Origin: a virus
Virus record (IMG/VR): IMGVR_UViG_3300037200_000088
Location: 1-64,000 of that record
Reading direction: 5' to 3' (one strand)
DNA: 64,000 nucleotides
In this document: positions 4,649-9,010 of the stretch, piece after piece
Position numbering within the stretch: position 1 is the first letter of the stretch
Layout: the number at the start of each line of letters is the position of its first letter
The notes under the pieces: model-generated
Database searches by the model: none
What the model was told of the DNA's origin: nothing
What the model saw: the letters and a program-made list of their open reading frames with translations, nothing else
Position numbers and translations under genes: made by a program

Positions 4649-5452
4649 TCAATGCGTCATCGCGTGCAGCAATCCTGCGATTCCGCCAACCATGCCGACG
4701 AACCCGAATACGACGGCGGTGATAGAGACGTTTTTGGCGAAACCGTCGGCCGCCTGTTGGGTTCGGCCGGTGCCTATGTTCGCGCCGGCCGAGAGGCGAT
4801 CAATGGCCGTCGCCATTTCCGCAAGAGCGCGCGCGGTTGCTGGATCTGAAACGCTGCTTCGCCCTTCGTTGGCCAGCACGCGCTCTTTGAGGTCGCTGAT
4901 CTTGTCATCGGTGTTTTTGACGATCGATTTTACGCTGTCGGCGAGCTGATCGATTTGCTTGGTGAAGGCGGTTTCGCTTTTGGTGATCGAGAGCGCGTTG
5001 GACTTGTTCTGCTCTCCGACTGCCTCTTTCGCTGCTGCAAAGGCCGCGTCAACCGCGCTCTTGACGTCGCGCGCCGCCTTTTCGGTCTGGATATCGCTGA
5101 GCTGAAAACGTTCGTTGACCGTCGTCTTGAAAACGCTGACGGTCTCGGCAAGCGCAGCGAGCTTGATTTCGGTCTGAGAATACCTGCCCTCGACATGCTC
5201 CAGCAAGCGTGCCCGCTTGGCCTCGTTGAACTCACCGGCGGTTTGGAGCGCCTTATCGAGCGCGGTCGGGACGCGGGTCAGGTTTTCGCTGAAAATCTCT
5301 GTCGCTTTGTCGATCGCGTCAAAGCGCGCCACGACGGTGTCCTTGAATGCGGCGATGGAGTCCTTAATGAGCGCTACGGTCGCGAGTGTCGGGTCGGGAT
5401 CAGGACGGCGCATGCGCGCTTCGTTGGTCTCGGGTACTTCAGAGGTTAGCAC
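4649..5452 (-). CDS. Coiled-coil protein with C-terminal TM (start may be ATG 5413)
   Basis: Long heptad region followed by hydrophobic C-terminus. Confidence 0.75.
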   Translation of the reverse strand: MLTSEVPETNEARMRRPDPDPTLATVALIKDSIAAFKDTVVARFDAIDKATEIFSENLTRVPTALDKALQTAGEFNEAKRARLLEHVEGRYSQTEIKLAALAETVSVFKTTVNERFQLSDIQTEKAARDVKSAVDAAFAAAKEAVGEQNKSNALSITKSETAFTKQIDQLADSVKSIVKNTDDKISDLKERVLANEGRSSVSDPATARALAEMATAIDRLSAGANIGTGRTQQAADGFAKNVSITAVVFGFVGMVGGIAGLLHAMTH

Positions 5453-6149
5453 TTATCGAGCCCGTCAAAAGCCTCTGTTTCTCACGCCAGGCCACTCCGG
5501 CCGCCTGCACCTTCGCAATATGCTCTGGCGTTTTCTTGTGTGCGCTCATCTTGGCGCGGGTCTCAGGTGATCGTTTGATTCCCACTAGCGCGGCGCTCCT
5601 TTTGGCTCGAGCCTTTGGGTCAGACATGATCTTCCGTTGCGCTTGGCTTAATTGCTCTCGGTGGCCATCGGATAGCGCGCGGCCTTTGTTCTTTTCCAAC
5701 GCTTTCGCTCGCGTGACGTCGCTGGGGATTCGCCCTTTAAGCGCCTTACTCAAATTGTTTCTGTGACTAGCGGATTTTATGTGACCCGTGAGAGACTTGC
5801 TCAGGTTCGCGCGATGGGCGGCAGACGCGATCAGGCCAAACGATCCTTCCCCGCCGTCGGTGAGATTGCATAGCGATCCGGTCTGACTATTGACCCTACC
5901 GAAGTGCGCGATCAGCGCCATCTCGGTCTCAAACGCCTCGGGCTCAGTCAGATTTTCTCTGACAGTCACAAAAGAAATAGGCCCGTGCTTTTTGACTATG
6001 TTGTTCATGTGCGGATTATGGTGCGTGCCGCGCGCGGCCTCTCTGTTGTGGAACATGATCCGGCGTCGTTGCCCCTTTCCCACGTAACACGGCTCATCGG
6101 TCCTCGGATGGAAGCCAACGTAGACGTAGAATTTTTGTTCATCGCGCAT
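5439..6149 (-). CDS. GIY-YIG homing endonuclease with NUMOD3-like repeats
   Basis: FYVYV...CYVGKG, NLTDGGEG, repeats such as RSPETRAKMS. Confidence 0.88.
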   Translation of the reverse strand: MRDEQKFYVYVGFHPRTDEPCYVGKGQRRRIMFHNREAARGTHHNPHMNNIVKKHGPISFVTVRENLTEPEAFETEMALIAHFGRVNSQTGSLCNLTDGGEGSFGLIASAAHRANLSKSLTGHIKSASHRNNLSKALKGRIPSDVTRAKALEKNKGRALSDGHREQLSQAQRKIMSDPKARAKRSAALVGIKRSPETRAKMSAHKKTPEHIAKVQAAGVAWREKQRLLTGSISANL

Positions 6150-6190
6150 GGTGCAACTATAGCACAATCAACCGACGATTGCCTGACCCG

Positions 6191-6595
6191 TCACGACTGC
6201 CACATGGTGGAATGCCCGTCGCCCTGTATCCCGGTCGCTGCCGGCTGAAACATCCCGAGCCCACCGATCACCGTCGGCAGCCAGCTATCGGCCGCAGCAA
6301 GCCCCCCAGGGCCAGCGCTGAGCGCTGTGTCGAGTTCGGTCGCCCATGTGAAGCCTTGCGCGCCGAGCTCAGTCAGGATGCGCCCCGCGGCCCGTATAGC
6401 GCCGGGGTGAGCTTTGACCCACGCGTCGAGCGCGGCGATCTTTGGCTGCGCGGCTGTGAGCGCAGCCAATGCGTCCGCTTCTGACATGGGCGCTGCTGGC
6501 GGTAGCGGCAAATTCGCCGCGTAATCCGCTTCGGCCTGTTCGAACGCGCGCACGAGCGCCATGAGGTCAAAGCGCGTGGCTACGGAAGCAATCAT
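6191..6595 (-). CDS. Hypothetical Ala-rich protein (lysis region)
   Basis: AGGA SD, clean ORF between HEG and moron. Confidence 0.7.
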   Translation of the reverse strand: MIASVATRFDLMALVRAFEQAEADYAANLPLPPAAPMSEADALAALTAAQPKIAALDAWVKAHPGAIRAAGRILTELGAQGFTWATELDTALSAGPGGLAAADSWLPTVIGGLGMFQPAATGIQGDGHSTMWQS

Positions 6596-6619
6596 TGCTT
6601 TTGAGTTCCTATTTGTCTC

Positions 6620-6650
6620 TTGACATTTTGTTTGATACGTGGGCTACTCA
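6620..6650 (+). promoter_or_regulatory. Putative RpoD promoter of moron
   Basis: TTGACA-N17-GCTACT resembles alphaproteobacterial TTGAC..GCTA consensus. Confidence 0.6.
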
Positions 6651-6694
6651 CTTCAGCCGCGCGCCTCGGCGGTATCTGGGGCTGGAGAGATAGC

Positions 6695-8308
6695 ATGATT
6701 TCGCATTCCGGTCGCCGTGCCCGTGCGGCAAATCCCGAACAATCGAAAACCTCCAAGACGAAAGTTGGCCGTTATTCCGAGTTGGAATACGGCGTTCTCG
6801 TTTCGTCGCCGCGCGAACGCTTCGAAGCGGCGACTTGCGATAGCGCAAAAGTCTTCAAGACAGATGCGACGGGGCTTTGGGAATTGTATCTGAAGGGGCT
6901 TCCGGCGCCTGAGCGGCAGTATCACAACTGCCATTGCTGCCGGACCTTTATTGAGCGGTTCGGCTCTCTTGTAGTCATTGACGACAAGGGCATCGCTTCG
7001 CCCGCTCTTTGGACTGAGGATTGCGCCGGGCTGTACCATGACGCATTCGCTGCGATGTTTCACGCTGTCAAGTCCGCTAGGGTTACCGGCGTTTTCCTTT
7101 GCAAGAAAACGACGTGGGGTATCCCCGAAACGCCGGGCTGGACGCACTTGTCCGCCTTTCCTCCGGCTCGCCTTGTCTATCGCGAAACCGCCCTCACCGC
7201 CGGGCAAAAGATGGCCGCCAAGCGCGAGGATTACATCACCATTTCGCGCGCGCTTTCCGAATACCCTGCGGAAATAATCGATCAGGCGATTCGCTTGTTT
7301 GATGCGGATGCATTGGCTCGTTCTGAACGGTTCCTTGAACCAGCAAGATGGTTGCGCCGACTGCATGATCGACCGCGCGGTCGCCTAGGCGAAAACATCT
7401 TGTGGCGCGAGGTCGCGAGCGCCCCGGACGGCTTTTGCCATATCAAGTCCTCCGTTATCGGTCCTCTATTGGATGCGATCAGAGAAGGAAAGCCCTTCGA
7501 CGAAATTCGCCGCTCGTTCGAATCCATGCTGCACCCGCTTCGCTACCAGCGCCCAACCGAAGCGCCGAACGCCGGGAATATCCGCGCGGCGGAACTTTTG
7601 GTCGAGAAACTCGGCGTTTCGCGATCTCTCGAACGAAGGTTCGCGCGGCTCGACGAAGTCCCTCGCGCGTGGACCCCGAAGCCTTCAAAGGAGCCCTCGA
7701 ACGAAGGCGGCGTTTTTGCTCACGTCAAAGCCAAAAGCGGCGGCGCATCGGTTCGTCCCGTCGAAATCGGCGAGACCGTCGTAACCGCCGTTAAGTTCCT
7801 AGACAAGGTTTTGCCGAGCGCCGAAAAAATCGAATTGTTGGTTCCGGGGCACGGCAACTTCATCGCCATGCTGACGGCGGAGCACGCTGACGCGCCTGTA
7901 ATCCACAAGTGGGGAAACGCGTTTTCTATCTATGTCTACCACAACGGAAGCCCCGCTTCGACTTGGAAGCTAGCCGCGCACGCATGGGCTGAGGTTACGG
8001 CGTTCGTTCGAATGCCGTCGATGTGGGGAGAAACCCCCTCGCCACATCTCGGAGACGGCTACGTTATCGCTCTCAAAGGCGCGGTCGATGTGAGTGAAAA
8101 CCAAGGCAACGCTCTTTTTCCAGAGACGCTAATTGGCGAGCTTCATGGGGCAAGATCGGTGGTCGAGGCGTATTCCAAGGCCGCGAAAATCGGCGGTAGG
8201 GAAAACGCTTCGGTCTGCGGATATGCCTTGCGAGGGGGCGGTGACGTTCGCCTGAGAGTGCTTGCCAACGGCGGGACAGCGTTGTACAGGATCGACCGTT
8301 GGGATTGA
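6695..8308 (+). CDS. 537-aa protein of unknown function with HNCxCC motif (moron)
   Basis: GGAGA SD before ATG 6695; ERQYHNCHCCRTFIERFG motif; antisense to late operon. Confidence 0.85.
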   Translation: MISHSGRRARAANPEQSKTSKTKVGRYSELEYGVLVSSPRERFEAATCDSAKVFKTDATGLWELYLKGLPAPERQYHNCHCCRTFIERFGSLVVIDDKGIASPALWTEDCAGLYHDAFAAMFHAVKSARVTGVFLCKKTTWGIPETPGWTHLSAFPPARLVYRETALTAGQKMAAKREDYITISRALSEYPAEIIDQAIRLFDADALARSERFLEPARWLRRLHDRPRGRLGENILWREVASAPDGFCHIKSSVIGPLLDAIREGKPFDEIRRSFESMLHPLRYQRPTEAPNAGNIRAAELLVEKLGVSRSLERRFARLDEVPRAWTPKPSKEPSNEGGVFAHVKAKSGGASVRPVEIGETVVTAVKFLDKVLPSAEKIELLVPGHGNFIAMLTAEHADAPVIHKWGNAFSIYVYHNGSPASTWKLAAHAWAEVTAFVRMPSMWGETPSPHLGDGYVIALKGAVDVSENQGNALFPETLIGELHGARSVVEAYSKAAKIGGRENASVCGYALRGGGDVRLRVLANGGTALYRIDRWD

Positions 8309-8312
8309 GTTT

Positions 8313-8385
8313 CAGGTTATAGCTCAGTGGTAGAGCGTCGGAATCTGGTTCCGAAAGTCGCTGGTTCGATTCCAGTCTAACCTGA
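8313..8385 (+). tRNA. Atypical tRNA, anticodon CTG (Gln by anticodon; C1-G72/A73 Pro-like acceptor)
   Basis: CAGGTTA/TAACCTG acceptor, GCTC-AGTGGTA-GAGC D arm, TCGGA-ATCTGGT-TCCGA anticodon arm, GCTGG-TTCGATT-CCAGT T arm, extra C8377, no encoded CCA. Confidence 0.8.
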
Positions 8386-8392
8386 CCTTCTT

Positions 8393-8428
8393 GAGACGCC
8401 GCCAATCGCACTGGCGGCGTTTCTATTT
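8393..8428. terminator. Hairpin terminator between convergent units
   Basis: GAGACGCCGCCA/TGGCGGCGTTTC 12-bp stem followed by TATTT. Confidence 0.7.
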
Positions 8429-8838
8429 CAGGACTTGGCGGTTCCGGGCGCGGGGGCGAGCGCAGTCGTCGCCGGGACTGTCGGCGCAGTTGTGGTTGGA
8501 GCCAGAACCACCGTCTGACCGACCACACCCTTGCTGAACAGCGTACCAAAGATTGTGCTTAGCCTCGCTCCAGCCGGCCCCAGATCCGTCATGATCTGGC
8601 GTCCTTCCGTGACCAACGCCTGCACGTCCGTGATGGCAGTCGGAGCGACATTCGTGAGCGCGGTCGCCGCCGCTTGCGCCCCAGCGACGAACGGCGCTGC
8701 GCCGGGGATCAGCCCCACGGCCGGCAAGATCTCTTCCCCGAGTTGGACAGCGGGCGCGATGAAAGGCTGCACTTTCGTGTAGGCGTTCTCGACGTCCGTA
8801 AACAGACCTTCTAGAAAAGTCTCGGCTGCATTGCTCAT
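8428..8838 (-). CDS. Hypothetical amphipathic protein (lysis region)
   Basis: GAGGT SD; clean ORF. Confidence 0.75.
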   Translation of the reverse strand: MSNAAETFLEGLFTDVENAYTKVQPFIAPAVQLGEEILPAVGLIPGAAPFVAGAQAAATALTNVAPTAITDVQALVTEGRQIMTDLGPAGARLSTIFGTLFSKGVVGQTVVLAPTTTAPTVPATTALAPAPGTAKS

Positions 8839-9010
8839 TTGGATTTTACCTCAGCCTCGTGATTGACGTGAGCACCGCGAGGCAGCAGTGCTCACGATCC
8901 CCTCGTGGCGCCAGGGAGCCAGCGCCCGTCATAGGGAATTCGGATTGGAATTTAGGGGAAGGATTTTCAGACGAACGCAAAAGCGCCGAAGGCTTCTAGC
9001 GCGCGCCGGC

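Follow-up and report, generated by a model that had tools for sequence, protein, structure and literature searches.

When the anticodon of a transfer RNA (tRNA) gene names one amino acid and the rest of the molecule another, which of the two should be believed, and what is such a gene for? The question is raised by a gene on the plus strand at positions 8313-8387 of the window, i.e., of the whole 64,000-nucleotide (nt) stretch of viral DNA analysed here (IMG/VR record IMGVR_UViG_3300037200_000088, positions 1 to 64,000). ARAGORN calls this RNA tRNA-Gln(ctg), and an initial annotation of the window had described it as a Gln anticodon on a Pro-like tRNA. That description is borne out and strengthened by BLAST searches and by a ranking of phage tRNAs, in which the whole body, beyond the acceptor end, is Pro-like. 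Judged by its sequence, this is a real, structurally maintained phage tRNA gene, descended from a phage-type tRNA-Pro, with its anticodon switched to CUG. We hold with high confidence that the tRNA has tRNA-Pro ancestry and belongs to a family of mobile cassettes with a characteristic bulge.

Fold of the tRNA and register of its acceptor stem

The gene and its parts, all on the plus strand, are as follows.

8313-8387, +, tRNA gene; C1 to A73 are 8313-8385, followed by encoded C74 and C75, with T8388 in place of A76
8313-8319, +, 5' strand of the acceptor stem, CAGGTTA, pairing with 8378-8384; C8313-G8384 is the Pro-type 1:72 pair
8322-8336, +, D arm with a 4-bp stem and a 7-nt loop containing G18 and G19; U8 and A9 are 8320-8321, and G15 is 8327
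8338-8354, +, anticodon arm with a 5-bp stem and a 7-nt loop at 8343-8349 (A32, U33, C34, U35, G36, G37, U38)
8345-8347, +, anticodon CTG, which pairs with codon CAG
8360-8376, +, T arm, GCTGG/CCAGT, with stem 8360-8364/8372-8376, a G49.U65 wobble and the canonical loop TTCGATT
8377, +, extra unpaired C at the junction of the T stem and the 3' strand of the acceptor; the same insertion occurs in two homologues described below, L247:3122 (C) and L194:3137 (T)
8378-8385, +, 3' strand of the acceptor stem (8378-8384) and discriminator A73 (8385)

The match to the Rfam tRNA model RF00005 scores 51 bits against a cut-off of 29 (E-value 5e-8). In the segment comparison used below all 21 of the 21 stem pairs are standard, and the minimum-free-energy fold is a bulged cloverleaf. 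The core nucleotides of a tRNA are all present (U8, A14, G15:C48, G18-G19, A21, U33, a purine at 37, G53-C61 and the T-loop UUCGA). ARAGORN, a program that the initial annotation had recommended, draws a cloverleaf at 8313-8387 with a 7-base-pair (bp) acceptor stem running from C8313-G8384 through A8319-U8378, discriminator A8385 and a variable loop of 5 nt; the tail is CC (8386-8387), followed by T8388 rather than A. The sequence and this drawing confirm the individual features to which attention had been drawn, namely the anticodon CTG within the loop ATCTGGT, where A32 is able to pair with U38, and, in the sequence, the C1-G72 acceptor pair, A73, the additional C at 8377 and the ACCT end. 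An eighth acceptor pair, T8312-A8385, had been suggested as well; it is formally possible and carries no weight, because U at position -1 is the most frequent leader base in bacterial pre-tRNAs.

Owing to C8377, the tRNA lacks the uninterrupted 12-level stack of acceptor and T stem (7 bp plus 5 bp). The Rfam alignment places the irregularity elsewhere, as a missing nucleotide 7 with G8384 as the discriminator, which would give the molecule a strikingly Gln-like end (A1-U72, G2-C71, G3-C70 and G73). This register is rejected, as homologues encode G-A-CCA at the equivalent place, and C8313 and the A-C-C match the tRNA-Pro relatives. Since the homologues encode the full G-A-CCA tail, G8384 should be read as nucleotide 72 and A8385 as nucleotide 73; the ARAGORN register is then the right one, which makes C8377 an inserted base in the 3' strand of the helix formed by acceptor and T stem.

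A separate Logan assembly of the probable source run contains a 74.8-kb contig that is identical to the window across 6600-8900. A contig from a different sample and study agrees with the window, without a single difference or gap, over 8336-8900, a span in which the anticodon, C8377 and the ACC-T end all lie. As the sequence is identical in two metagenomes, the oddities of the tRNA are not assembly errors. In two further runs, only tRNAs of other organisms were aligned, at 8328-8373.

Proline ancestry of the body and of the anticodon loop

Among 50,697 annotated phage genomes, the best full-length BLAST matches of the 75 nt are tRNA-Pro(UGG) genes, from N4-type coliphages at 76.6% and from Streptomyces BE-cluster phages at 76%. 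The acceptor stem is that of the N4-type tRNA-Pro apart from one compensated flip at pair 5:68; the window tRNA and the phage tRNA-Pro also have the D arm, the variable loop, G26 and the A73-CC tail in common, and one Streptomyces-phage tRNA-Pro has exactly the same T stem, GCTGG/CCAGT including the G.U pair. BLAST against E. coli genomes gave only partial matches to sporadic tRNA-Thr, tRNA-Asn and tRNA-Ile genes, which have no typing value.

We also ranked a library of 188 distinct phage tRNAs (the complete T5 and Lululemon sets, plus the tRNAs of IMG/VR loci fetched for other reasons) against the window tRNA after masking the anticodon loop. The seven top places are all taken by tRNA-Pro(UGG), at 77-80% identity; the next after Pro is a tRNA-Met at 71%, and the best tRNA-Gln comes at rank 23, with 66%. 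Library tRNA-Pro have C1-G72 in 13 of 15 cases, A73 in 15 of 15 and G37 in 13 of 15; library tRNA-Gln have U1-A72 in 9 of 11 and A37 in 10 of 11. C1-G72 is found in 13 of the 173 non-Pro tRNAs as well, so that it is typical of Pro in phages and not exclusive to it. By these comparisons, the body is that of a phage tRNA-Pro, not of a tRNA-Gln.

The same is suggested for the anticodon loop. A scan of viral sequences for AT-NGG-GT in tRNA geometry gave at least 120 places, and 30 of the 30 ARAGORN-called matches in the frame A32-U33-NGG-G37-U38 are tRNA-Pro(GGG), with C1-G72 and A73 in 28 of 28 distinct ones. Because this frame is normal for tRNA-Pro(GGG), the apparent oddities A32, G37 and U38 are inherited from the Pro scaffold and are not adaptations of a tRNA-Gln; C1-G72, A73 and the ACC-T tail likewise belong to that scaffold. 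Searches for the particular loop of the window tRNA gave the following: an exact 36-mer of the tRNA has no match in IMG/VR; a pattern of the loop and T-loop retrieves from IMG/VR just tRNA-Leu(UAG) and non-tRNA matches; the D arm with WTCTGRT has 5 matches in JGI metagenomes, 0 of them tRNAs; and the same loop geometry, sought in one genome each of 185,579 species, has 6 matches, none a type-I tRNA with that loop.

The origin of the loop bears on a proposal of the initial annotation, that of a nuclease-resistant or decoy tRNA, i.e., a replacement or lure for the host tRNA-Gln under attack by an anticodon nuclease, with A32 and G37 as escape changes. Phage tRNAs with changed anticodon loops have been proposed to evade host anticodon nucleases (PMC10264068), and phage tRNAs are reported to be able to overcome retron and other tRNA-targeting defences (PMC11555353). 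We found nothing in support of such a role here: A32, G37 and U38 are explained by the tRNA-Pro(GGG) frame on a Pro scaffold rather than by changes to a tRNA-Gln; a replacement must be charged with Gln, against which the acceptor end speaks; a decoy should copy the host loop, and the window loop is unlike it, occurring in no cellular tRNA in the set of one genome each from 185,579 species; and the phage is without a known host or defence system. We consider this explanation highly improbable.

A mobile cassette with a tRNA slot

The tRNA stands between a protein-coding gene and a terminator:

6695-8308, +, upstream cassette gene encoding 537 amino acids (called product P0001); the longest open reading frame (ORF) starts at 6620, and the TGA ends at 8308
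8309-8312, +, spacer GTTT, 4 nt from the stop codon to tRNA nucleotide 1; the same in loci L247 and L197
8393-8429, +, intrinsic terminator, consisting of a G+C-rich hairpin of 12 bp and a U-rich tract after it, which closes the gene-tRNA unit

The spacing of 4 nt from the upstream stop had been recognised before, and it holds: the TGA of ORF 6620-8308 ends at 8308, and GTTT follows. The terminator hairpin has a folding free energy of -22.9 kcal/mol (z -5.6), and 0 of 200 shuffled sequences are equally stable. No sigma-70-type promoter was found across 6300-8700 by the rule of the scanning tool, in a scan that also overlooked this folding-supported terminator.

The upstream protein belongs to the family PF26675 / phrog_1735, which has no assigned function, counts more than 540 homologues and includes a chromosomal copy in Bradyrhizobium (P0109). 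Residues C79 and C82 (in HNCxxC), C248 and H249 are invariant. An AlphaFold model of the protein has a predicted local distance difference test score (pLDDT) of 81.6. Neither a profile search nor Foldseek at E 1e-3 or better matched the protein to the PDB; VIA-align in its wide mode gave a best Z of 4.6 across 62 residues, which is no credible PDB match, and a scan of the local Pfam library produced no match. The predicted structure has no recognisable RNA-related fold, and a link to tRNA biochemistry is neither indicated nor excluded by the model.

A search with the upstream protein alone found 6 distant viral loci, none with a downstream tRNA. A search with a 28-member alignment of the family (A1) found 80 loci, 7 of which have tRNAs within 1.5 kb and 74 of which have no tRNA directly downstream. 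The comparison of tRNAs that follows covers relatives at 47-51% protein identity, with P0002-P0008 (58-63%) lying outside it. In the nearest relatives examined, the tRNA begins 4-12 nt past the PF26675 stop codon, on the same strand, as it does in the window; this position is called the slot. The window, L247 and L197 have one and the same junction, TGGGATTGA-GTTT-CAGG, and a viral scan with it retrieved the window, L247 and L197 lineages only. That the tRNA is a partner RNA of the upstream protein, which the initial annotation had offered as another possibility, may be one reading of this arrangement: the linkage is kept in the nearest clade, and there even between unrelated phages, yet 74 of the 80 family loci are without a directly downstream tRNA and the protein lacks a recognisable RNA-related fold. 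The slot tRNAs are the following.

Window: loop of 7 nt, CUG; extra C at the junction
L247:3122: loop of 8 nt, CUGCUGGA; extra C; C54; G49.A65; followed by a normal tRNA-Pro(UGG)
L194:3137: loop of 7 nt, GCA with G37; extra U (T in DNA); A1.G72; A73-CCA; followed by Pro(UGG) and Thr(UGU)
L193:3123: loop of 7 nt, Pro UGG with A32; no extra base; A1.G72
L200:3104: loop of 6 nt; no extra base; A1.G72; D loop without GG; followed by Arg(CCG) with C37
L197 (= L274, L276): C33 in the loop; L247-type 5' half fused to the 3' acceptor of a second tRNA; 27 bits

A common scaffold runs through the slot, consisting of (C/A)1-G72, A73, U8-A9, the D stem GCTC/GAGC, G26, G37 and the same T arm, and the window tRNA conforms to it. 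The extra nucleotide between T stem and acceptor marks a subfamily of 3, i.e., the window tRNA and the first tRNAs of L247 and L194 (L247_1 and L194_1), and is absent in L193_1 and L200_1. The extra junction base is thus best regarded as a conserved family trait, not a lesion. The initial annotation had allowed that the oddities might be private to this copy, as in a decaying pseudo-tRNA. For the junction base, (C/A)1-G72 with A73, G37, the ACC-T tail and the 4-nt spacing, all of which recur in homologues, this worry is removed; for CUG, which is unique to the phage, it stands.

The phage genome is complete in IMG/VR, at 75,113 bp and with direct terminal repeats, and the window covers its first 64 kb. 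The phage comes from peat and is contractile-tailed, with genes for sheath, baseplate, tape measure, portal and terminase, and its whole 75-kb genome contains exactly 1 tRNA. In complete relatives too, the slot tRNAs are the sole tRNAs of the genome. When 17 further proteins of the window phage, sheath, portal, terminase and baseplate included, were compared with two of these relatives, whose complete genomes measure 58 and 64 kb, none was matched at E 1e-5. As none of the proteins tried is shared, the unit of gene, tRNA and terminator is a mobile cassette that retains its tRNA as it passes between unrelated phages. Close relatives of the phage itself, probed for with tail sheath and portal, yielded one 5-kb fragment and none, respectively. 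A gene resembling GIY-YIG homing endonucleases (5439-6167, minus strand) directly adjoins the gene-tRNA cassette. A reading of the tRNA as an att site is rejected, as its 3' half has no second copy in the window and the genome has terminal repeats.

Individual members of the slot family, and tRNAs at other loci, have features of their own. The closest homologue, L247:3122-3197 (IMGVR_UViG_3300042090_001925), scores 37.5 bits in Rfam, and a tRNA-Pro(UGG) with an identical anticodon stem starts 5 nt after it. Four-base decoding by its 8-nt loop was tried as an explanation and rejected: CAGC as a junction between ORFs in the 0 and +1 frames is not enriched in the L247 phage. In L197:1754-1840 (the same as L274 and L276; IMGVR_UViG_3300045778_000023, 3300045776_000251), the 5' half is identical to the first tRNA of L247 and the 3' acceptor matches the second; the element scores 27 bits in Rfam, under the cut-off, has a terminator downstream, and looks like the remnant of a deletion that fused two tandem tRNAs. 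L194:3137-3214 (IMGVR_UViG_3300044714_000024) is called tRNA-Cys(GCA) by ARAGORN, yet it has G37 and A73, where the 3 library tRNA-Cys have A37 and U73; by this comparison it is a second case of an anticodon that misfits its body. L200:3104-3260 (IMGVR_UViG_3300027867_000005) comprises two tRNAs, both with D loops without GG, which are the sole tRNAs of a complete 64.5-kb phage. In the jumbo-phage tRNA cluster at L144:517-3176 (IMGVR_UViG_3300020147_000065, 221 kb), ARAGORN draws at least 8 tRNAs with 13, not 12, positions in the 3' strands of T stem and acceptor, Gln(CUG), Gln(UUG) and Pro(UGG) among them; all 13 are paired in most, as would be expected of an acceptor stem of 8 bp or of a -1:73 pair. 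Finally, 2.5 kb downstream of a distant PF26675 homologue, L004:7171-7249 (IMGVR_UViG_3300010396_000006) is a 79-nt tRNA-Gly with the unusual anticodon ACC and, in the ARAGORN drawing, several unpaired acceptor positions.

Conserved structure and divergent anticodon

Pairs in the stems of the three tRNAs with the extra base were counted by coordinate-defined cloverleaf segments:

Window and L247_1: 14 pairs the same, 0 changed on one side, 6 compensatory
Window and L194_1: 15 the same, 0 one-sided, 5 compensatory
L247_1 and L194_1: 12 the same, 0 one-sided, 7 compensatory

ARAGORN draws the junction bulge in 2 of the 410 distinct tRNAs of all fetched loci, both of this slot family; it draws L194_1 in another register, which is contradicted by the encoded CCA, and the drawing with the extra base bulged is energetically better in all 3 (window, L247_1, L194_1). 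Among the three slot members with canonical 7-nt loops, the anticodon differs in 8 of 9 position comparisons, the other unpaired positions in 6 of 48, and the stem nucleotides in 34 of 126, nearly all of these in compensated pairs. On this comparative evidence, the divergence has the pattern of a scaffold that is conserved while its anticodon is switched, and does not resemble uniform decay.

These counts are pertinent to the idea that the gene is a pseudo-tRNA, i.e., a tRNA-Pro recently disabled by an anticodon mutation and a 1-nt insertion, with stems that have not yet decayed. Several observations fit: the exact loop is without a counterpart anywhere searched; clear decay or accidents are seen in slot relatives, both in L197 (deletion fusion, 27 bits) and in L247_1 (C54, G49.A65, 37.5 bits); the window tRNA itself, at 51 bits, falls under the 56-68 bits that normal cluster-member tRNAs score in Rfam; and there is no obvious need for codon supply, with CAG at rank 18 in the phage. 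Set against them, the insertion is common to L247_1 and L194_1 over 5-7 compensated pairs and about 50% divergence of the linked protein, the window copy keeps 21 of 21 pairs and all conserved tertiary positions, the differences are concentrated in the anticodon and not evenly spread, and the gene is the only tRNA of its phage and identical in two metagenomes. A pseudo-tRNA is, in our estimate, improbable.

A different kind of selection on structure is conceivable, in which only the tRNA shape matters. The element would be a tRNA-like RNA at the 3' end of the PF26675 messenger RNA (mRNA), recognised by RNase P, RNase Z, the CCA-adding enzyme or some other tRNA-binding factor; possible roles are to set or protect the mRNA 3' end, or to make an anticodon-directed RNA-RNA contact, with the anticodon loop free to vary. 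Such a role is consistent with the placement of the slot element, always first after the stop codon, at 4-12 nt, and before a terminator or more tRNAs, with loop lengths of 6, 7 and 8 nt among slot members, with stems preserved through compensated changes, and with retention of the element as the cassette moves between unrelated phages. Members with aberrant loops that are unable to decode normally (see below) would fit it too. There are precedents in the tRNA-like stable RNAs of the phage T5 record and in mascRNA, a processed and uncharged tRNA-like RNA (PMC9976931). The window loop is, on the other hand, fully canonical, with 7 nt, U33, a purine at 37 and every elbow nucleotide; the anticodon is the most divergent part of the molecule (8/9 versus 6/48), which looks like selection on anticodon pairing; and directly downstream of the gene such an element is missing from 74 of the 80 family loci. 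We rate a shape-only role as rather unlikely, albeit more probable than the other rivals.

Identity elements, charging and codon context

If the anticodon is in use, what would the tRNA carry? The identity set of bacterial tRNA-Gln comprises G73, U1-A72, G2-C71, G3-C70, G10, N34, U35, G36, A37 and U38, and the amidotransferase route of Gln charging needs U1-A72 (PMC9976931). The determinants of tRNA-Pro include C1-G72 or G72, A73, G35, G36, G37, G15-C48, G49 and U17a (PMC9976931, PMC10404621). The premise of the initial annotation, that tRNA-Gln uses U1-A72, as required by GatCAB, while G72 and A73 are Pro determinants, agrees with PMC9976931 and with the counts in our library. From the Gln set, the window tRNA has C34, U35, G36, U38, G3-C70 (G8315-C8382) and G10 (G8322), and lacks G73 (A73 instead), U1-A72 (C1-G72), G2-C71 (A2-U71) and A37 (G37, position 8348). 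From the Pro set, it has C1-G72, A73, G36, G37 (8348), G15-C48 (8327/8359) and G49 (8360). Owing to its short D loop, it has no U17a, which in E. coli tRNA-Pro(CGG) is a further determinant.

The gene might nevertheless be an ordinary tRNA-Gln(CUG), charged by glutaminyl-tRNA synthetase (GlnRS) mainly through the anticodon and boosting the major Gln codon of the phage. GlnRS mischarges foreign U35 tRNAs, as is known from amber-suppressor work. C34, U35, G36, U38, G3-C70 and G10 all fit the Gln set (PMC9976931), and CAG makes up 59% of the Gln codons of the phage. This explanation has to contend with the missing G73, U1-A72, G2-C71 and A37, the last of these present in 10 of 11 library tRNA-Gln; with the amidotransferase route, which is used by many bacteria without GlnRS and requires U1-A72 (PMC9976931); with a body nearest to tRNA-Pro and the best tRNA-Gln at rank 23; and with the tail G-A-CCA encoded by homologues, which contradicts the Gln-like Rfam register. 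We judge it very improbable.

Because its acceptor end has determinants of prolyl-tRNA synthetase (ProRS) and is without the acceptor determinants of GlnRS and U1-A72, the tRNA, if it is charged at all, would more likely receive proline than glutamine. A yardstick is provided by the tRNAProX of Streptomyces: E. coli ProRS charges tRNAProT approximately 4-fold less well than tRNA-Pro, and tRNAProN (U35, U36) approximately 3-fold less well again, i.e., approximately 12-fold in vitro, and both mistranslate in E. coli without a dedicated ProRSx (PMC10404621). By analogy, since G36, G37, G72 and A73 are all preserved in the window tRNA, ProRS may plausibly accept it as a substrate. A mis-charged tRNA reading CAG, another of the possibilities first listed for this gene, would then be the leading decoding hypothesis.

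The reading that we favour, if tentatively, is that of a working decoder of non-Gln, Pro-type identity, an anticodon-switched tRNA-Pro that would be processed and would pair with CAG. It would be co-transcribed with the upstream PF26675 gene; RNase P would cut before C8313, the 3' end would be trimmed, and the host CCA-adding enzyme would extend C75 to CCA. G37 would probably be methylated by TrmD, because G36 precedes it. Pairing with CAG on the ribosome would follow, and the molecule would be a dual-identity tRNA resembling tRNAProX of Streptomyces, weakened or tuned by the junction bulge.

Codon usage was counted in 74 crude gene calls, which together take up 89% of the window. In these, CAG occurs at 20.6 per 1000 codons (approximately 2.1%, rank 18), and CCG, at 28.5 per 1000, is the top Pro codon; no problem of CAG supply is evident. 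The upstream gene has CAG at 3 of its 537 codons, 0.56% versus 2.06% genome-wide. The possibility that CAG has been recoded to Pro in this phage is rejected, as the 3 CAG positions align with Q or E and never with P.

A number of observations weigh against a proline-identity decoder of CAG. U35 replaces G35 in the Pro set, and with it a strong ProRS determinant is lost. The 75-kb phage genome encodes neither a ProRS-like protein (core domain PF00587, tRNA-synt_2b) nor a YbaK-like one (PF04073, tRNA_edit). The bulge lies where EF-Tu and the synthetases contact the acceptor/T helix. In the PF26675 gene, the CAG positions (3 codons only, 59 homologues) align with Q in 77% of cases, with E in 21% and with P never; as the phage uses CAG as Gln, efficient misreading of Gln as Pro would be costly. 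Within the patterns used in IMG/VR, JGI metagenomes and the 185,579 species, CUG in the A32/G37/U38 frame occurs only in this phage and has no counterpart by which the conservation of this particular anticodon might be judged. The slot family is small, and L247_1 and L247_2 have identical anticodon stems, so that part of the compensation counted above may be due to exchange of blocks, or recombination, between tandem tRNAs. L247_1 with its 8-nt loop, L200_1 with 6 nt and L197 with C33 and a fused 3' half are unable to decode normally. Lastly, the stretch is found in no RNA run among the listed public runs, which says nothing on expression.

Comparison with known systems

The tRNAProX of Streptomyces and Kitasatospora combine a conserved scaffold and Pro acceptor marks with Ala, Thr or Asn anticodons (tRNAProA, tRNAProT and tRNAProN; PMC10404621), and the window tRNA is closest to them in concept. 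In both cases C1:G72 and A73 go with a non-Pro anticodon, members of the family differ mainly in the anticodon, and annotation tools name the gene by that anticodon; tRNAProX can be charged by a host-type ProRS in spite of it. Unlike tRNAProX, with A33, A34, A15:A48 and G21, the window tRNA has U33, C34, G15:C48 and A21; it also has the extra junction nucleotide, resides in a phage cassette and not on a bacterial chromosome, and is accompanied by no ProRS paralogue in the phage. The window tRNA is not a member of the tRNAProX family.

The nearest sequences, at 76-80%, are the tRNA-Pro(UGG) of N4-type coliphages and Streptomyces BE-cluster phages, with which it has in common the acceptor stem (one compensated flip aside), A73-CC, the D arm, G26, the variable loop and the G49.U65 T stem. 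They differ from the window tRNA in the loop, which reads UUUGGGA instead of AUCUGGU, and all of them lack the additional nucleotide at the junction.

Alloacceptor anticodon shifts (tRNA gene recruitment or remolding) have been described for bacterial, eukaryotic and mitochondrial tRNA genes. As in such shifts, a gene of one isotype has gained by mutation the anticodon of another, and the body shows its origin. The functional cases described fit the new amino acid, whereas here the acceptor stays Pro-type, and the setting is a mobile phage cassette with several anticodons.

The record of phage T5 (NC_005859, 28-41 kb) lists tRNA-like stable RNAs (RNA1, RNA2, RNA3) with unassigned functions inside its tRNA region; the same record marks the tRNA-Gln(CUG) of T5 as a pseudogene, and both may serve for comparison with aberrant phage tRNAs. 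RNA1-RNA3 and mascRNA resemble the slot element in being tRNA-shaped, in standing beside or in tRNA clusters or at transcript 3' ends and in having no known decoding role; their processing is by tRNA enzymes. They differ from the window tRNA, whose loop and elbow are fully canonical, and the T5 RNAs are likened to it by description, not by homology.

The frameshift-suppressor tRNA-Pro sufA6 and SufB2 also have a Pro scaffold with an altered anticodon loop, which is reminiscent of L247_1 and its 8 nt; the window loop, unlike theirs, has 7 nt.

Implications

As the gene stands, annotation pipelines would label it tRNA-Gln(CTG) and count it in the codon supply, when by build it is a tRNA-Pro. With one gene and one tRNA, the cassette would be a compact and clonable test system, and the conserved junction nucleotide, placed where RNase P, EF-Tu and the synthetases read a tRNA, provides a natural experiment on the tolerance of helix irregularity. 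Should the RNA turn out to be non-decoding, it would still represent a tRNA-shaped element that has been conserved at the 3' end of a phage gene with a wide distribution.

A broader scenario is speculative, and we consider it unlikely in its entirety: soil phages would swap a cassette with a proline-identity scaffold, a swappable anticodon (CUG, GCA and others) and a conserved extra nucleotide, as a phage counterpart of tRNAProX mistranslation that during infection would answer selected codons of host or phage with proline or with no amino acid, or as an exposed anticodon addressing an RNA target. So far, allo-tRNAs and the tRNAProX of a few actinobacterial genomes are the known cases of deliberately dual-identity tRNAs; if the scenario is true, the phage cassette would extend the idea to viruses.

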